This document shows, one piece after another, positions 10,300 to 36,203 of a stretch of DNA of 64,000 nucleotides. This DNA comes from Candidatus Hecatella orcuttiae (GTDB lineage: Archaea > Thermoproteota > Bathyarchaeia > Hecatellales > Hecatellaceae): assembly GCA_002011035.2 (NCBI GenBank), contig MTLY02000003.1, positions 320,001 through 384,000 on the forward strand, written 5' to 3'. A model generated the notes under the pieces. The model was not told the origin of the DNA, did not search any database, and saw only the letters and a list, made by a program, of their open reading frames with translations. Positions within the stretch are counted from its first letter, which is position 1. Each line of letters begins with the position of its first letter. The position numbers were made by a program, and so were the translations under genes.

Positions 10300-10740
10300 T
10301 TGAAGCAGAGCAGGAAAGGCTTTGAGTTCTTGGAGCATGCCAGCGACATCTACGTAGCCGCCTACGGGGAAACCTTGGAGGAGGCTTTTGAAAACGCTGC
10401 CAAGGCCATGTTCGAAGCTATGACAGAGTTGCAGCTTGTAGAGCCTAAAATGGAGGTTGAAGTCTCCGCGGAGGGAGGAGACCCGCAGGAGCTTCTCTAC
10501 AACTGGCTGGAAGCCTTGCTGGTTAAATACGAGGTAGAAGGTTTGCTCTTCTCCCGGTTTAAAGTAGACAAGATAGTCGAGAGAGAAGACGCTCTGAGGC
10601 TGAGGGCTTCTGCCTTCGGTGAACCTCTAGACCTCGGGAGGCATCCCTCTAAAGTGGAGATTAAAGCTGTAACCTACCATATGATGGAGGTCAAAAAGGA
10701 AGACGGCTGGGTGGAGCTCAGGGTTCTTTTCGACATATAA
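10300..10740 (+). CDS. Archease
   Basis: FEFLEHASDI, EIKAVTYH, C-terminal LFDI. Confidence 0.95.
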   Translation: MKQSRKGFEFLEHASDIYVAAYGETLEEAFENAAKAMFEAMTELQLVEPKMEVEVSAEGGDPQELLYNWLEALLVKYEVEGLLFSRFKVDKIVEREDALRLRASAFGEPLDLGRHPSKVEIKAVTYHMMEVKKEDGWVELRVLFDI

Positions 10741-10855: not shown

Positions 10856-12307
10856 ATGGCGGAGATTCCAATCCGCAAGATCGGAGAGTACGTTTGGGAA
10901 ATACCCAAGTATAGGCCTGAAATGAGAGTTTCCGGAATCGTTTACGCAGACAGCTTCCTCTTAGAAAAAATGAAAACCGACAGAACTCTTCTCCAATGCG
11001 CCAATGTGGCTACGTTGCCTGGGATTTACAAGTACGCCATAACCATGCCCGACGGCCATGAAGGCTACGGCTTCCCCATAGGAGGGGTGGCGGCCGCTGA
11101 CTACGAGGAAGGTGTCATCAGCCCCGGAGGCGTCGGATACGACATCAACTGCGGAGTACGTCTTCTGAAGACCAACTTGACGGAGAAAGAGCTGAGGCCT
11201 AAACTTCCCCAGCTTCTTGAACTGATCTTCAGGAAAGTTCCCTCAGGCTTGGGAAGCAAGGGCAAAATCAGACTTTCAACCCATGAGCTTGATGAAGTTG
11301 CCAGAGAAGGCATCGAGTGGGCTGTGGAAAAAGGCTACGGATGGGAGGACGACCTGAAACGCTGCGAAGAAAGCGGACGCATGCCAGGGGCAGACCCCTC
11401 TAAGGTCTCCAACACCGCCAAAAGTCGCGGAGCCCCAGAACTGGGGACGCTGGGCAGCGGAAACCACTTCCTCGAAATTCAGCGCATCGACAGGGTTTTC
11501 AACCCTGAGGCTGCGAAGACTTTAGGCCTCCAAGATGAAGGCTGGGTCACCGTCATGATCCACACGGGCTCCAGGGGCTTCGGTCACCAAGTGTGCTCCG
11601 ACTACCTCCGCATCATGGACAGGGCTGTCCGAAAATACGGCATCCAGCTGCCGGATCGGGAGCTAGCTTGCACCCCTGGGCAGAGCCCTGAGGCTGAAGA
11701 CTACTTCAAGGCTATGGCCTCCGCGGTGAACTACGCCTTCACCAACCGCCAATGCATAACTCACTGGGTTCGCCAAGCTTTTGAGGAGGCTTTCGGCCGG
11801 TCTGCGGAGGAGTTAGGCTTAGAAGTCATCTACGATGTAGCCCACAACATCTGCAAGAAAGAGGAACACATGGTGGAGGAAGGAAAGGTGCGGACTGTGT
11901 GGGTTCATAGGAAAGGCGCCACCCGGGCTTTTCCACCAGACCACCCGGCTCTACCCGCCGGATATAGGGCGATGGGTCAGCCTGTCCTCATCGCGGGGAC
12001 TATGGGAACCAGTTCCTGGCTGCTTCTGGGAACCAAGAAGGCTATGGAGCTGAGCTTCGGCTCCACTGCCCACGGAGCCGGGAGGTTCATGAGCAGGTCT
12101 GCGGCTACCCGAAAGTTTGGAGGCCCGCAGGTGAAGGAAGCCTTGGAAAGGCGAAGCATCCTCATCCGAGCGGCCAGCATGAGGGTGATAGCGGAGGAGG
12201 CTCCTGAAGCCTACAAGGACGTGGACAGGGTGGCTGAAGTTTCCCATCAGCTGGGAATAGCCACTAAGGTTGTGAGGCTGACGCCCTTAGGCGTCGTGAA
12301 GGGCTGA
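10856..12307 (+). CDS. rtcB: tRNA-splicing ligase RtcB
   Basis: PDGHEGYGFPIGG, GYDINCG, GSGNHF, HRKGATRA, HGAGR, EEAPEAYKD; GGAGGAG SD before 10856. Confidence 0.98.
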   Translation: MAEIPIRKIGEYVWEIPKYRPEMRVSGIVYADSFLLEKMKTDRTLLQCANVATLPGIYKYAITMPDGHEGYGFPIGGVAAADYEEGVISPGGVGYDINCGVRLLKTNLTEKELRPKLPQLLELIFRKVPSGLGSKGKIRLSTHELDEVAREGIEWAVEKGYGWEDDLKRCEESGRMPGADPSKVSNTAKSRGAPELGTLGSGNHFLEIQRIDRVFNPEAAKTLGLQDEGWVTVMIHTGSRGFGHQVCSDYLRIMDRAVRKYGIQLPDRELACTPGQSPEAEDYFKAMASAVNYAFTNRQCITHWVRQAFEEAFGRSAEELGLEVIYDVAHNICKKEEHMVEEGKVRTVWVHRKGATRAFPPDHPALPAGYRAMGQPVLIAGTMGTSSWLLLGTKKAMELSFGSTAHGAGRFMSRSAATRKFGGPQVKEALERRSILIRAASMRVIAEEAPEAYKDVDRVAEVSHQLGIATKVVRLTPLGVVKG

Positions 12308-23176: not shown

Positions 23177-24841
23177 ATGGCAGCTCAAGCAATTCCAGCT
23201 GTAACTGAATCCGGTCAACCTGTACTGATCTTGAAAGAGGGAACAACCCAGACGAAGGGAAGGGAAGCCCAGAGGAACAACATCACCGCCGCCAAGGTTG
23301 TGGCTGAAATCATTAGGACATGCCTCGGCCCCCGGGGCATGGATAAAATGCTCATCTCCAGCTTCGGCGACGCCACCATAACCAACGACGGAGCCACCAT
23401 TCTGAAGGAGATGGACATTCAACATCCAGCCGCCAAGATGATGGTGGAGACGGCTAAGGCCACCGACCAAGAGGTTGGCGACGGAACCACCAGCGTCGTG
23501 GTGCTGGCTGGGGCTTTGCTGGAGAAGGCGGAAGCTCTCATCGATAAAAACGTTCACCCCACCCTCATCGTCGACGGCTACAGCAAGGCTGAAGAGAAAG
23601 CCTTGGAATTCGGCCGGAAGATAGCCATACCAGTGGACCCAAAGGATAAGGGGATGTTGAAGAAGGTGGCGATAACCTCCATGGCCAGTAAGCTGGTTTC
23701 AGAGAATCGGGATTACCTCGCAGACTTGGCTGTGGAAGCCATTCTGCAAGTCGCCCAGAAAACTGACGAAGGATACAAAGTGGACATCGGAGACGTGAAG
23801 GTGGAGAAGAAGGCGGGAGCCTCCATCACCGACACCCAGCTTATTCGAGGGGTAGCTGTGGATAAGGAAGTGGTTCACAGCGGTATGCCTAGGAGGGTGG
23901 AAAAGGCGAAAATAGCCCTCTTGGAAAGCCCCTTGGAGATCGAGAAGACAGAGTTTGACGCCAAGATCAACATAGAGACTCCGGAGCAGATGAAGAGCTT
24001 CATGGACGAGGAGACCAGAATTTTCAAGGAGATGGTGGATAAGATTGCTGCCACTGGGGCCAACGTGGTCTTCTGCCAGAAAGGCATCGACGACATGGCT
24101 CAGCATTTCTTGGCCAAACGGAGTATCCTAGCCATCAGGAGGGTTAAGCAGTCTGACATGGAGAAGCTTTCCAAAGCCACGGGTGGAAGAATCGTCACCA
24201 GCGTAGACGCCTTAACGTCGGCAGACTTAGGCTCCGCTGAGCTAGTGGAGGAGAGGAAGCTGGGAGAAGACAAGTGGACCTTCGTGGAAGGCTGCAAGAA
24301 CCCCAAGTCCCTCACCATCCTAGTGAGAGGCGGAACTGAGAGAGTTACCGACGAGGCTGAGAGGTCTATCCACGACGCTCTTTCTGTGGTGAGAGACGTA
24401 GTGGAGAACCCCAAGATCGTCGTGGGAGGAGGCGCCTTTGAAGCAGAGGTTTCCACCCAGCTGAGAAACTGGGCTCAAACTCTCACAGGCAGGGAGCAGC
24501 TGGCTGCTTTAGATTTCGCCGACGCGCTTGAAAGTATCCCGCTGACTTTGGCTGAGAACGCAGGCGCAGACCCCTTGGACATCCAAGTGGAGCTCAGGTC
24601 GAGGCATGAGAAAGGTGAAAAATGGTACGGCGTCGACGTCTTCGCAGGGAAGGTGGCAGACTTGGAGAAGCAAGAGGTGTTGGAGCCTTTGAGGGTGAAG
24701 GAGCAGATAATAACTTCAGCCCACGAAGCTGCAGCCATGATCCTCCGTATCGACGATGTTATTGCCGCTTCTAAGATGAAGGAGTCAACCCCGCCTAAAG
24801 GCGGAGGCGCCGGAGGGGAAGAAAGCTCCGAATTTGATTAA
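23177..24841 (+). CDS. thsA: Thermosome (group II chaperonin) subunit, first paralog
   Basis: [30 protein letters not shown]; acidic C-terminus; alpha/beta assignment tentative. Confidence 0.96.
23858..24093 (+). repeat. 236-bp exact repeat, copy 1 (copy 2 at 25528-25763)
   Basis: Base-by-base identical from GTGGATAAGGAAG to GGCATCGACGA in both thermosome genes. Confidence 0.92.
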
Positions 24842-24867
24842 GGTTTCCAAGATGGAGGTGTAAAAAG

Positions 24868-26529
24868 ATGGCAAGCGCAGGAAGTGTTCCGGTACTGATC
24901 CTGAAAGAAGGAACCGGGAGAACCCGGGGTAGAAACGCTCAGAGAAACAACATCATGGCAGCGAGAATCATCGGAGAAGTTCTAAAGAGCACCCTCGGGC
25001 CCAGAGGCATGGATAAGATGTTGGTGGACAGTCTCGGCGACGTGACGGTAACCAACGACGGAGCCACCGTCCTCAAGGAAATCGACGTCCAACATCCAGC
25101 CGCCAAGATGATGGTGGAGGCGGCTAAGACCCAAGATACCATCGCCGGCGACGGAACCACCACCGTAGTGGTTCTGGCAAGCGAACTGCTCAAAAAGGCT
25201 GAAGAGCTGCTGGACCAGAACATTCATCCAACCGTGGTGGTCGGAGGCTACAGGAAAGCGGCCGCTCAGGCCTTGGAGGAGTTGGGCGGCATCGCCAAAG
25301 GCGTGGACATCAAAGATAAAGAAGCCTTGAAGAAGGTGGCGTCCACTGCCATCCGAAGCAAGTCAGTGGCCTTGTCTAAGGAGCTGGTGACTAACCTAGC
25401 CATCGAGGCAGTGGATCTCATCGCCGAACGTCGAGGAGACAAGTGGGTTGCCGATGTTGAGCAAATCCAGATAACCAAAAAGCACGGTGGAAGCTTCACT
25501 GACACCCGGCTTATCAAAGGGATCATCGTGGATAAGGAAGTGGTTCACAGCGGTATGCCTAGGAGGGTGGAAAAGGCGAAAATAGCCCTCTTGGAAAGCC
25601 CCTTGGAGATCGAGAAGACAGAGTTTGACGCCAAGATCAACATAGAGACTCCGGAGCAGATGAAGAGCTTCATGGACGAGGAGACCAGAATTTTCAAGGA
25701 GATGGTGGATAAGATTGCTGCCACTGGGGCCAACGTGGTCTTCTGCCAGAAAGGCATCGACGAGATCGCCCAGCATTTCCTAGCCAAACAGGGCATCCTA
25801 GCTGTGAGGAGGGTTAAAAAGTCTGACATGGAGAAGCTTTCAAGAGCCACAGGAGCCCGCATCGTCACCAACTTTGACGACCTGAAAAAGGAAGACTTGG
25901 GTACAGCTGAACTGGTGGAAGAGAGGAAGTTCGGAGACGACAAGATGGTCTTCGTGGAAGGCTGCAAGAACCCCAAGTCGGTAGGCGTCCTGATCCGCGG
26001 AGGCCTAGAGCGATTCGTCGACGAGGCTGAAAGAGCCGTTCACGACGCTCTTTCCGTGGTGGCCGATGTTTACGAGAACCCCAGGATCGTGGCGGGCGGA
26101 GGCTCTCTGGAGATGGAGTTGGCTAAACGTCTCAGGAGCTACGCAAGCAAAGTTGGCGGCCGGGAGCAGTTGGCTGTGGAAGCCTTCGCTGACTCCTTAG
26201 AGGCTATCCCCCGAACTCTGGCTGAAAACGCGGGAATGGACCCAATAGACATCCTAGTGGACCTAAGAGCCCAACACGACAAGCCTGAGGGCCTCTCCGT
26301 GGGAGTAGATGTGTTCTCTGGGAAAGCAGCTGACATGGAGAAGCTAAACGTCCTCGAGCCGGCGAAGGTTAAGGAGCAAGCCATCAAGAGCGCCGTGGAA
26401 GCAGCCTGCATGATCCTCCGCATCGACGACGTCATCGCAGCGGCTAAGACGAAGCCTCCTGAAACGAAAGGCGGCGGTCCAGGCGGTGGACCAGGAGGAC
26501 TGGGAGGCGGCGGAATGCCTCCGATGTGA
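24868..26529 (+). CDS. thsB: Thermosome subunit, second paralog
   Basis: Same chaperonin motifs; Gly/Met-rich tail GGGGMPPM. Confidence 0.96.
25528..25763 (+). repeat. 236-bp exact repeat, copy 2
   Basis: Identical to 23858-24093. Confidence 0.92.
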
Positions 26530-26660
26530 CAAGGTAAGTCGCTGCTCTAAGTTCCCTTCACTTTCTTCATTTTTTATGAATATTCTAACCGGTTTTTTCC
26601 CTGTGAAGGTTTATAATTTCCAGCCGTCTTAGATAAGGAAGTCTTTTAGCCGGGGTCACT

Positions 26661-26829
26661 GCCGGGGTTCCGAGGCTGTGGGAAGACAGCCGTCGGGCCG
26701 AAGGCTGAGTGGACTAACCTGAAGGAGGGTAAGGGTTCAAAAGCGCGGGCCTTGAGTTGAACCGCTGGCAAAAGATAGCCCGTGAGCCTCCTGAGGCTCG
26801 CAAGGGTTCAAATCCCTTCCCCGGCGCCA
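26661..26829 (+). tRNA. tRNA-Ser(UGA) with three introns (26669-26702, 26717-26740, 26757-26776)
   Basis: Spliced product GCCGGGGTGGCTGAGTGGACTAAAGCGCGGGCCTTGAGAGCCCGTGAGCCTCCTGAGGCTCGCAAGGGTTCAAATCCCTTCCCCGGCGCCA is a canonical 91-nt class II cloverleaf with G73 and encoded CCA; each intron is bounded by a BHB-type motif. Confidence 0.88.
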
Positions 26830-27440: not shown

Positions 27441-28865
27441 TCAACTGGATTTTAATGCCACGGTTTCAACCCTGATGGTGTTGGTGGTGCCCACTCTGCT
27501 TTTGGGATCTCCGGAAACTAGGATAATGCGGCTAAGCCTTTTCGCATCACCCTTTTTCGCCAAGATTCTTTTAGCCTCCCGGAGGATGAGGTCGCTGTTC
27601 ATGGGTTCCTCCGCTAAATAGGGTTCTACCCCCCAAGATAGGAGGAGCCTCCGCTGTAGCGAAGGGTCTGCGGTGAAGACTAACAAAGGGTTGGGCGGTC
27701 TGTAGCGGGATATTCTGTAGGCGGTTGAGCCGGACCGGGTGGGGACCACGATGGCCGCAGCCTCCAAGCCTATTGCCAGCCGGCATGCGGTGTAGCTGAT
27801 CACATCTTCCGGTGTCCGTTTGGCCGAGGATTCGCGTTGGGCTAGGATCTCCCTGTAGGGAAGTTTTTTCTCCACGGTCTCAGCCACCCGGGCCATGACC
27901 TTAACAGCCTCCACCGGATAGTTTCCCACAGCGGTTTCCTCCGAAAGCATCAAAGCGTCGGTGCCATCGAAAACAGCGTTGGCTATATCGCTTACTTCCG
28001 CCCTTGTAGGCCGAGGATTCTGCACCATGGACATGAGCATTTGGGTTGCCGTTATAACCGGTCTACCGTGGAGGTTGCAGTCTCGGATCAACTGCTTCTG
28101 CAAGATGGGTATGTTTTCCACATCCATCTCCACCCCCAAGTCGCCGCGCGCAATCATGATGCCGTCAGATTCCCTAATGATCCTGCGGATATCTCTGAAG
28201 GCGGAGGCTCGCTCGATCTTGGCGATAACCCCTGCTTTACTCTTCCTCCGTTTGATAAGCTCTTTCGCGGCGATGATGTCCTTGGAGCTTTGAATAAATG
28301 AAAAGGCAACAAAATCCACTTCTTTTTCAAGCCCAAATTCCAGATGCTCCGCATCTTTCTCCGTAATAGGCGGCATCTTCACCATGAAACCGGGAATGTT
28401 CATCCCCTTACCTGAGTGCAAAGTCCCGCCTGTTGCAACTTTGCACGCTACATTTTTTTCGTCGGTGTCCACCACCTCCAACCTGATGGTTCCGTCAGCT
28501 AGGTAGATTTTATCTCCCTTCTTCACCTCCTGAGGGAGAGAGCTGTAATTCACGGAGACCCTATGGGAGTCCCCTTCAACCATCTCGGTGGTTAAGGTGA
28601 ACGTTGCCCCCTCCGTCAACCGGACGGAGCCTTCCTTGAAACGCCCAATCCTCAGCCTCGGGCCCGGTAGGTCTTGGATTATTCCTATGGGCGTATGTAA
28701 CTCGTGGGATATCCCCCTGATCAGCTCAATAACTCTTCCATGCTCCCGGTGGGTTCCGTGGGAGAAGTTTAGGCGGGCCAGCTTCATTCCTGCCTTAACA
28801 AGCTGCTTCAAAACCTTGTAGGAGGAGCTAGCCGGACCGATGGTGCACACGATCTTCGTCCGCAC
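27441..28865 (-). CDS. pyk: Pyruvate kinase
   Basis: TKIVCTIGPAS, RLNFSHG, IAKIE, ARGDLG, ATQML, PTRAE. Confidence 0.98.
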   Translation of the reverse strand: MRTKIVCTIGPASSSYKVLKQLVKAGMKLARLNFSHGTHREHGRVIELIRGISHELHTPIGIIQDLPGPRLRIGRFKEGSVRLTEGATFTLTTEMVEGDSHRVSVNYSSLPQEVKKGDKIYLADGTIRLEVVDTDEKNVACKVATGGTLHSGKGMNIPGFMVKMPPITEKDAEHLEFGLEKEVDFVAFSFIQSSKDIIAAKELIKRRKSKAGVIAKIERASAFRDIRRIIRESDGIMIARGDLGVEMDVENIPILQKQLIRDCNLHGRPVITATQMLMSMVQNPRPTRAEVSDIANAVFDGTDALMLSEETAVGNYPVEAVKVMARVAETVEKKLPYREILAQRESSAKRTPEDVISYTACRLAIGLEAAAIVVPTRSGSTAYRISRYRPPNPLLVFTADPSLQRRLLLSWGVEPYLAEEPMNSDLILREAKRILAKKGDAKRLSRIILVSGDPKSRVGTTNTIRVETVALKSS

Positions 28866-36124: not shown

Positions 36125-36203
36125 GGGGTGGTGGTCCAGCATGGTCTACGATTCCCGGCTCGGGCCCGGGAGGTCGGGAGTTCAAATCTCCCCCACCCCA
36201 CCA
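36125..36203 (+). tRNA. tRNA-Pro(CGG), intronless
   Basis: Acceptor GGGGTGG/CCACCCC-A-CCA, anticodon arm CCCGG-CTCGGGC-CCGGG, T arm GGGAG-TTCAAAT-CTCCC. Confidence 0.93.

Follow-up and report, generated by a model that had tools for sequence, protein, structure and literature searches.

Introduction

The presence of introns in tRNA genes is usually explained by the tolerance of the splicing endonuclease. The closest described systems are the multi-intron tRNAs of the Thermoproteales, which, in two reviews (Yoshihisa 2014, PMC4090602; Fujishima and Kanai 2014, PMC4033280), contain at most three small introns per gene with a BHB or relaxed BHB motif, a heteromeric EndA of broad specificity and a ligation of the RtcB type. 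The intron positions given by Yoshihisa 2014 (PMC4090602) are 20/21, 22/23, 25/26, 29/30, 30/31, 45/46, 53/54, 56/57, 59/60 and 3/4, the last one corresponding to an acceptor-stem intron cited there from Sugahara 2008 for some Thermoproteales tRNAs. The tRNA-Ser(UGA) gene described here shares the small introns, the motifs and probably the enzymes of these systems, the EndA composition being deduced from the genome. Unlike them, it belongs to Bathyarchaeia/Hecatellales, it is interrupted at position 8/9 (7/8 and 9/10 in sister genes) and it is preceded by a copy of its own acceptor strand. The 3/4 intron is similar in lying so close to the 5' end that acceptor-stem bases and leader sequence are needed for its motif; the site differs. 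The position 8/9 is absent from the part of Yoshihisa 2014 that lists positions, and our literature search, which had the primary intron catalogues outside its scope, returned no report of an 8/9 site, of a leader helper strand or of tRNA introns in Bathyarchaeia; those catalogues may list 8/9.

Two other systems display similarities with this locus. In the split tRNA genes of Nanoarchaeum and Caldivirga and in permuted tRNAs, as covered by Chan 2011 (PMC3218864), sequence located outside the tRNA (leaders and trailers) also builds or supports the BHB. There the extra sequences pair mutually, across two transcripts or permuted ends, whereas here a leader element resembles a strand of the tRNA and its partner would be the 3' strand of its own transcript. 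The tRNAs of an Asgard preprint are similar in that most genes are interrupted, many D-arm introns are missed by standard software, and gains are repeated and patchy. In the available portion of that preprint acceptor-stem inserts and those at junctions fall under 'other', and a leader element is not mentioned.

Gene structure of the tRNA-Ser(UGA) locus

The window, a stretch of 64,000 nucleotides, contains a tRNA-Ser(UGA) gene with three small introns, as first noticed in an initial annotation of this DNA (Table 1). The removal of these introns had been said to give a canonical tRNA-Ser; the product recomputed in silico is recognised by ARAGORN as a 91-nt class II tRNA-Ser(tga). It has a long variable arm (variable region of 19 nt with a stem, as in class II), the anticodon TGA, G73 and an encoded CCA, and all the stems and invariant bases are intact after intron removal. 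The four exons are collinear on one strand within 169 nt, and the gene is therefore neither split nor permuted. A T-rich trailer follows the CCA. In its unspliced form the locus escapes ARAGORN, and also Rfam tRNA when matches up to E<=1 are allowed. Contigs from four DNA runs are identical to the window at the locus and display no variant, this comparison concerning DNA only.

The locus occupies an intergenic space, with thermosome genes on one side and a pyruvate kinase gene on the other. The two thermosome genes upstream end at position 26529, and a small DUF6485 frame and the pyruvate kinase gene come after the tRNA. The thermosome genes represent a tandem subunit pair (23177-26529), and the pyruvate kinase gene (27441-28865) is on the opposite strand. 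An intronless tRNA-Pro(CGG) is found at positions 36125-36203, 9 kb further along.

Table 1. Features of the tRNA-Ser(UGA) locus, of the processing genes in the window and of four sister tRNA loci of the same genome (G000). Positions without contig name refer to the window.
Feature	Position	Strand	Basis or remark
TATA-like box TTTATAAT, putative promoter of the pre-tRNA	26611..26618	+	best AT-rich 8-mer, crude scan
Leader copy GCCGGGG, putative stand-in that would pair with the 3' acceptor strand	26649..26655	+	identical to bases 1-7
Spacer TCACT between leader copy and G1	26656..26660	+	direct reading
Exon 1, tRNA positions 1-8	26661..26668	+	spliced fold, BHB search, alignment
Intron 1 at 8/9, 34 nt	26669..26702	+	hairpin and 3' strand GCCG pairing with bases 3-5(6)
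Exon 2, positions 9-21	26703..26716	+	spliced fold, BHB search, alignment
Intron 2 at 21/22, 24 nt	26717..26740	+	BHB search: H 4/4, h' 3, h 1
Exon 3, positions 22-37, anticodon TGA	26741..26756	+	spliced fold, BHB search
Intron 3 at canonical 37/38, 20 nt	26757..26776	+	BHB search: H 3/4, h' 2, h 7
Exon 4, positions 38-76: variable arm, T arm, G73, encoded CCA	26777..26829	+	spliced fold
3' acceptor strand (within exon 4)	26819..26825	+	
Archease (PF01951), RtcB ligase co-factor	10321..10737	+	157 bits, sole match in genome
RtcB RNA ligase (PF01139)	10994..12304	+	590 bits, sole match in genome
tRNA-Thr(GGU), L036	C3:415560-415760		
Second initiator tRNA, L037	C2:476860-477060		
tRNA-Val(GAC), L038	C2:30240-30460		
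tRNA-Lys(UUU), L039	C3:675920-676130		

BHB motifs and conservation of the intron sites

The bulges and helices proposed by the initial annotation were re-read and were also recovered by a search of our own. The register is exact at all three sites: two 3-nt bulges, a 4-bp helix between them and a cut after the second bulge base. At 8/9, the bulges GT^T and AA^G flank the helix CGGG/GCCG, in which a G.G mismatch accompanies three Watson-Crick pairs; the inner helix begins with 4 bp and runs on as a 6-bp stem, and the outer helix is composed of 2 bp (G1-C11 and C2-G10). At 21/22, the bulges are TA^A and AA^A and the helix GGAC/GTTC has its four pairs, one of them G.U, with an inner helix of 3 bp and an outer helix of 1 bp. 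At 37/38, the bulges AG^T and AT^A flank the helix CTTG/AAAG (three pairs and a G.A mismatch), the outer helix being the anticodon stem. The purine-purine mismatch thus occupies the same, fourth pair in the 8/9 and 37/38 helices, as had been pointed out. A strict hBHBh' motif is defined by two flanking helices each with at least two Watson-Crick pairs (PMC7714728). The 8/9 motif (h 2, h' 4) has both flanking helices of this rule, the mismatch in H aside, as has the 37/38 motif (h 7, h' 2), and the 21/22 motif (h 1, h' 3) falls short of it; two of the three motifs are relaxed by this definition.

The search was run on the 46 T-arm loci of the genome. A candidate motif needed 3-nt bulges, a 4-bp helix in which no more than one pair was mismatched, and an inner or outer helix; up to three inserts are taken out per locus and the resulting cloverleaf is scored. 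The three introns of the window are the top solution for their locus, with a cloverleaf score of 56, the highest among the 46 loci. As the intron calls rest on BHB rules, calls and structure are not fully independent. An alignment of 13 Ser(UGA) genes was realized with MAFFT and without any BHB rule, and in comparison with the compact orthologues the inserts fall at the same three sites; the exons are conserved across the aligned genes and the inserts are variable. The 21/22 insert is present in 9 of the 13 genes, four of them from other families, and the 37/38 insert in 12 of the 13. Four further Ser(UGA) orthologues, missed by the pattern, stand outside this alignment and were counted as compact genes in the orthologue comparison given below. 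The 8/9 insert occurs in 5 of 16 Ser orthologues, namely in the genome of the window and in four genomes of two sister genera, and is missing from the other 11. It is also found in metagenome variants of tRNA-Ser.

The position 8/9 had been singled out as unusual. The site itself is confirmed, but it is no one-off: a second 8/9 intron of this genome lies in tRNA-Thr(GGU), and three more genes are interrupted at 7/8 or 9/10. In the tRNA-Thr(GGU) of two genomes (G003 and G001), the exon base C is replaced by T at base 5 or 4 and its intron partner G by A, two compensatory changes in support of helix H. In the Ser introns, helix H always carries a purine-purine mismatch and the outer helix is limited to 2-3 bp. 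Taken at the level of the gene, we have little doubt that the locus is real and is spliced at the three junctions of Table 1.

Gene number, lineage and processing enzymes

The census of the genome contains Ser genes with the anticodons GGA, GCU and UGA. With the spliced sequence as query, blastn recovered an additional Ser gene sharing this acceptor stem (C2:365193-365316), which is a tRNA-Ser(CGA). Located on the minus strand, this gene escaped the T-arm scan and has inserts in the T loop and adjacent to the anticodon loop. The initial annotation had proposed to look for another Ser(UGA) gene; no second one was detected by the T-arm census and blastn in this 97% complete genome. The intron mode of ARAGORN gave many false calls, and its 'Ser tga' at C1:172190 is in fact a Thr(UGU). 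About half of the tRNA genes of the genome are interrupted in the same style.

The initial annotation had referred to the multi-intron tRNAs of the Thermoproteales; the present genome groups elsewhere. An exact-pattern scan of species genomes recovered the 8/9 arrangement in four archaeal records, annotated as Candidatus Hecatellales or uncultured Candidatus Bathyarchaeia, besides one chance match in a Micromonospora record. The four archaeal records correspond to the related genomes compared here, and the lineage is therefore Bathyarchaeia of Hecatellales type and not Thermoproteales.

An EndA of non-homomeric type had also been expected. The catalytic triad of EndA is Tyr-His-Lys. Two EndA paralogues are present in the genome (C2:15570-16124 and C2:374733-375302), one of catalytic type and one devoid of the catalytic His: the paralogue of 184 aa aligns end to end with the catalytic subunit of A. 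pernix (1.2e-46) and keeps the His, and in the paralogue of 189 aa a Pro stands at the position of the His of the aligned M. kandleri chain. An (alpha-beta)2 EndA is predicted from these two genes. Archease and RtcB, already placed in the same window by the initial annotation, were identified there by their Pfam matches (Table 1). The RNase P RNA is represented by two matches above the Rfam cut-off (C3:4813-5114 and C2:470380-470771). The second match is about 90 nt longer, which could reflect an insert, a paralogue or contamination (rated 4.25%).

A copy of the 5' acceptor strand in the leader

The most informative feature of the locus had escaped the initial annotation: an exact copy of bases 1-7, GCCGGGG, is located five bases upstream of G1. 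The four related Ser genes with an 8/9 intron all have such a copy, GCCGGGG or GCTGGGG, at a distance of 3-8 nt and with spacers of unrelated sequence. When all nine Ser genes with an 8/9 intron are considered (eight distinct, L177 being a near-copy of the gene of G011), the copy pairs at 6 or 7 of the 7 positions in each of them. The pattern used for the metagenome scan excluded the leader; GCCGGG is nevertheless found within 20 nt upstream in 8 of 8 metagenome loci, with a pairing of 7/7 in four loci and of 6/7 in the four others.

A whole-genome scan for T arms with two upstream strands able to pair with the 3' acceptor strand retained 6 of the 46 loci. Five of these six are genes with a 7/8, 8/9 or 9/10 intron: Ser(UGA), Thr(GGU), the second initiator, Val(GAC) and Lys(UUU). 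The sixth is a tRNA-Asn (L040, C1:224580-224800), with an exact copy 35 nt upstream and no resolved 5' intron; this copy may be due to chance or be the relic of a lost intron. With an estimate of about 0.04 chance copy matches per locus, a single case of this kind is expected by chance.

Among orthologues, the copy accompanies the intron. It is present in 5/5 intron-bearing versus 0/11 intronless Ser genes, in 4/4 versus 0/5 Thr genes and in 2/2 versus 0/5 Lys genes; for Val, the gene of G012 has both copy and intron and seven compact genes have neither. In 109 unique tRNA loci, the copy was observed in 17 of the 18 genes with an intron between 7/8 and 9/10 and in 2 of the 91 genes without (17/1 versus 2/89), a table on which the Fisher test overstates the association because the sampled genomes are related. 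Independent origins amount to some five tRNA families, with a few lineages in addition. The lone exception among the 18 is the tRNA-Val(GAC) of the present genome, where the search preferred the upstream copy and took it as exon by rule, the choice between the two copies being ambiguous.

A TATA-like box is located 29-42 nt before the copy in five Ser genes (in the window, 38 nt before the copy and 50 nt before G1), to be compared with a median of 41 nt to G1 in 34 ordinary genes, all values coming from a crude scan. From this position of the box the copy is expected to be transcribed, and to sit about where the normal 5' end would be.

Pairing of the copy and folding energies

The initial annotation had noted that the 8/9 motif makes use of acceptor-stem bases. 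Our reading supports this point for bases 1-6, and the motif consequently competes with the acceptor stem. In the tRNA-Thr(GGU) of G003 and G001, the copy still has C at the base that differs in both real strand and intron, and this C matches the G of the 3' acceptor strand rather than the intron. At positions 1-6 the copy departs from the real strand only by C/T changes, by which the pairing with G is retained. The minimum-energy folds of the five Ser precursors, 20 nt of leader included, all pair the copy with the 3' strand; in the window precursor the copy is paired over its whole length with the 3' acceptor strand of Table 1, and this fold is without helix H.

Ensemble energies were calculated for 13 genes with either the BHB pairs or the real acceptor stem enforced, and are given as BHB minus acceptor stem. 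At 37 C the difference is positive in 13/13 genes when the leader copy is blocked (+1.5 to +10.4 kcal/mol) and in 13/13 when the leader is removed (+2.7 to +11.4 kcal/mol). With the copy free, it becomes negative in 12/13 genes (-9.5 to +3.5 kcal/mol), and in 11/13 at 65 C. The tRNA-Lys of the same genome stays at +3.5 kcal/mol with the copy free. For the window, the values at 37 C are +7.9 (blocked), +10.0 (no leader) and -1.3 kcal/mol (free); a free copy thus brings the two conformers only to near parity, and at 65 C the value is +0.8 kcal/mol. All three BHBs and the paired copy can be combined in one conflict-free fold, but its energy is 24 kcal/mol higher than the minimum, and it would therefore require protein binding or stepwise splicing. 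These calculated energies suggest that the copy could hold the 3' acceptor strand, leaving bases 1-6 available to build the BHB.

Proposed mechanism

In the mechanism that we propose, the leader copy of the precursor would pair with the 3' acceptor strand, by which the real bases 1-6 would be freed. Bases 3-5(6) would form helix H with the 3' end of intron 1, and bases 1-2 would form helix h with G10-C11, the two helices presenting the 3-nt bulges GT^T and AA^G. The two-paralogue EndA would cut the three BHBs and RtcB, with Archease, would join the exons. Once intron 1 is removed, the real strand would displace the copy, the acceptor stem would form and RNase P would then take off the leader. 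Such a scheme would extend the proposal of the initial annotation that splicing precedes acceptor-stem formation.

The anatomy of the gene, the conserved intron sites and the existence of the processing enzymes are established by the sequences, and the order of events above is proposed. The parts of this reading are held with different confidence. That the locus is a functional single-copy tRNA-Ser(UGA) gene with a leader of about 20 nt, whose BHB introns at 8/9, 21/22 and 37/38 are spliced by the endonuclease with folding assisted by the copy, appears probable. We lean, with less assurance, towards a copy that has been selected as a folding helper of the proposed kind; against it, the copy pairs at only 6/7 positions in three metagenome variants. 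As for the most general form, in which a strand surrogate encoded in the leader is a required cis helper that licenses introns at 7/8, 8/9 and 9/10, keeps the 3' acceptor strand occupied until the EndA cuts are made and thereby also forces splicing before RNase P trimming, we consider the case to be evenly balanced.

Alternative explanations

The copy could be functionless, the remnant of a mutation, such as a short tandem duplication at the 5' end of the gene, that gave rise to the intron or came with it, EndA cutting at 8/9 regardless. The Val(GAC) genes of one genus speak in this direction: G012 (L101) has a copy and a 41-nt 7/8 intron and G010 (L102) is compact, so copy and intron were gained or lost together and a single event could suffice. 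The repeat unit of G012 moreover extends 4 nt past the strand into the start of the intron, a hint of tandem duplication, and the tRNA-Asn has an upstream copy without 5' intron. Against it, the 7-mer has been kept across genera whereas the intron bodies and the spacers (3-13 nt between copy and G1 in 18 genes, with no shared sequence) have diverged completely, and the C/T changes at positions 1-6 have preserved the pairing with the 3' strand. At least five different tRNA families acquired the combination of copy and intron, and no decayed copy was seen among the intron-bearing genes (17/18, the eighteenth being the ambiguous Val). We regard a functionless copy as unlikely. A target-site duplication was rejected as both copies are on the same side of the intron.

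The copy could also act after cleavage only, as a tether that holds the short 5' exon (8 nt plus leader) until it is joined by RtcB, with no part in the folding of the BHB. Once both cuts are made, an outer helix of 2-3 bp is all that links exon 1 to exon 2; another 6-7 bp would come from the pairing between the copy and the 3' strand. Yet the real strand, when out of helix H, can itself pair with the 3' strand, and the calculated energies place the larger effect at the folding step. Tether and folding roles are compatible with each other, and a tether to the exclusion of folding seems rather improbable to us.

In a third reading, the role of exon 1 in this gene belongs to the upstream copy, with the 5' cut at 26656/26657 and an intron of 46 nt, and it is the downstream copy that pairs with the 3' end. 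As the upstream copy is also followed by T, this cut would yield an identical mature tRNA. By direct reading, the flank TTTAGC can pair with GCTGAG of exon 2 as a 6-bp outer helix, and the preference of the search for the upstream copy in the tRNA-Val of this genome goes the same way. On the other side, no more than 2-3 outer pairs are available from the flanks in the four related Ser genes, and the cut at 26656/26657 is followed by no in-register inner helix, whereas the downstream copy has one in 9/9 Ser genes. The same exon would moreover give A8 in the four related genes and a G.U in the acceptor stem of three of them. Since it implies A8 in related genomes, we rate this reading as very unlikely. 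The removal of the leader by a second BHB, without RNase P, was rejected, the spacers of 3-13 nt fitting no common bulge.

Finally, a decayed or unused gene with retained inserts, suggested by the failure of the standard finders, is barely credible for the sole Ser(UGA) found in a 97% complete genome where about one tRNA gene in two is similarly interrupted, its exons being conserved beside variable inserts and its stems and invariant bases intact after splicing.

Initiator tRNA genes and trailer copies

Two initiator tRNA genes are present in the genome of the window. The first (C3:12646-12724) is intronless. The second (C2:476912-477052) has 7/8 and 37/38 introns, and its D loop and T stem differ from those of the intronless gene. 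In a genome of family f7 (G024, L163), the initiator gene has a 31-nt 7/8 intron preceded by two tandem leader copies (AGCGGGG-AAT repeated), and its intron ends resemble those of the interrupted gene of G000. A 7/8 intron call in the initiator of G010 (L090) was weak; on reading, the gene is compact and it was counted as intronless. The doubled initiator strand was also searched in 401 genomes of the class, where the reversed-pattern control also matched in many genomes and 0 of 30 loci had an initiator T arm downstream. Twelve further doubled-initiator places were inspected: one is real (the G024 gene), three correspond to the mirror case on the other strand and eight have no downstream 3' acceptor strand.

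The initiator tRNAs L161 and L162 (genus g15) and L167 (genus g10) contain a T-loop insert and, in the trailer, a second CCCCGCT located 2-4 nt behind the first. Such a trailer copy of the 3' strand may be the mirror form of the leader copy. No convincing trailer copy of the 3' strand was found among 39 genes of the present genome.

Implications

At this locus the cutting motif and the acceptor stem are mutually exclusive, and a transcribed spare strand appears to resolve the conflict. If this is true, the leader copy would be an RNA chaperone acting in cis, which sets the order of tRNA processing, splicing then 5' trimming. It would also explain why such genes are invisible to the standard finders (ARAGORN, Rfam tRNA), and the doubled acceptor strand would then be a signature by which annotators can find concealed tRNA genes of uncultured archaea. 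The patchy co-occurrence of intron and copy in closely related genomes would bear on the gain and loss of tRNA introns. If the arrangement is general, the places where tRNA introns persist would depend on transcribed helpers located outside the tRNA as well as on the specificity of EndA.
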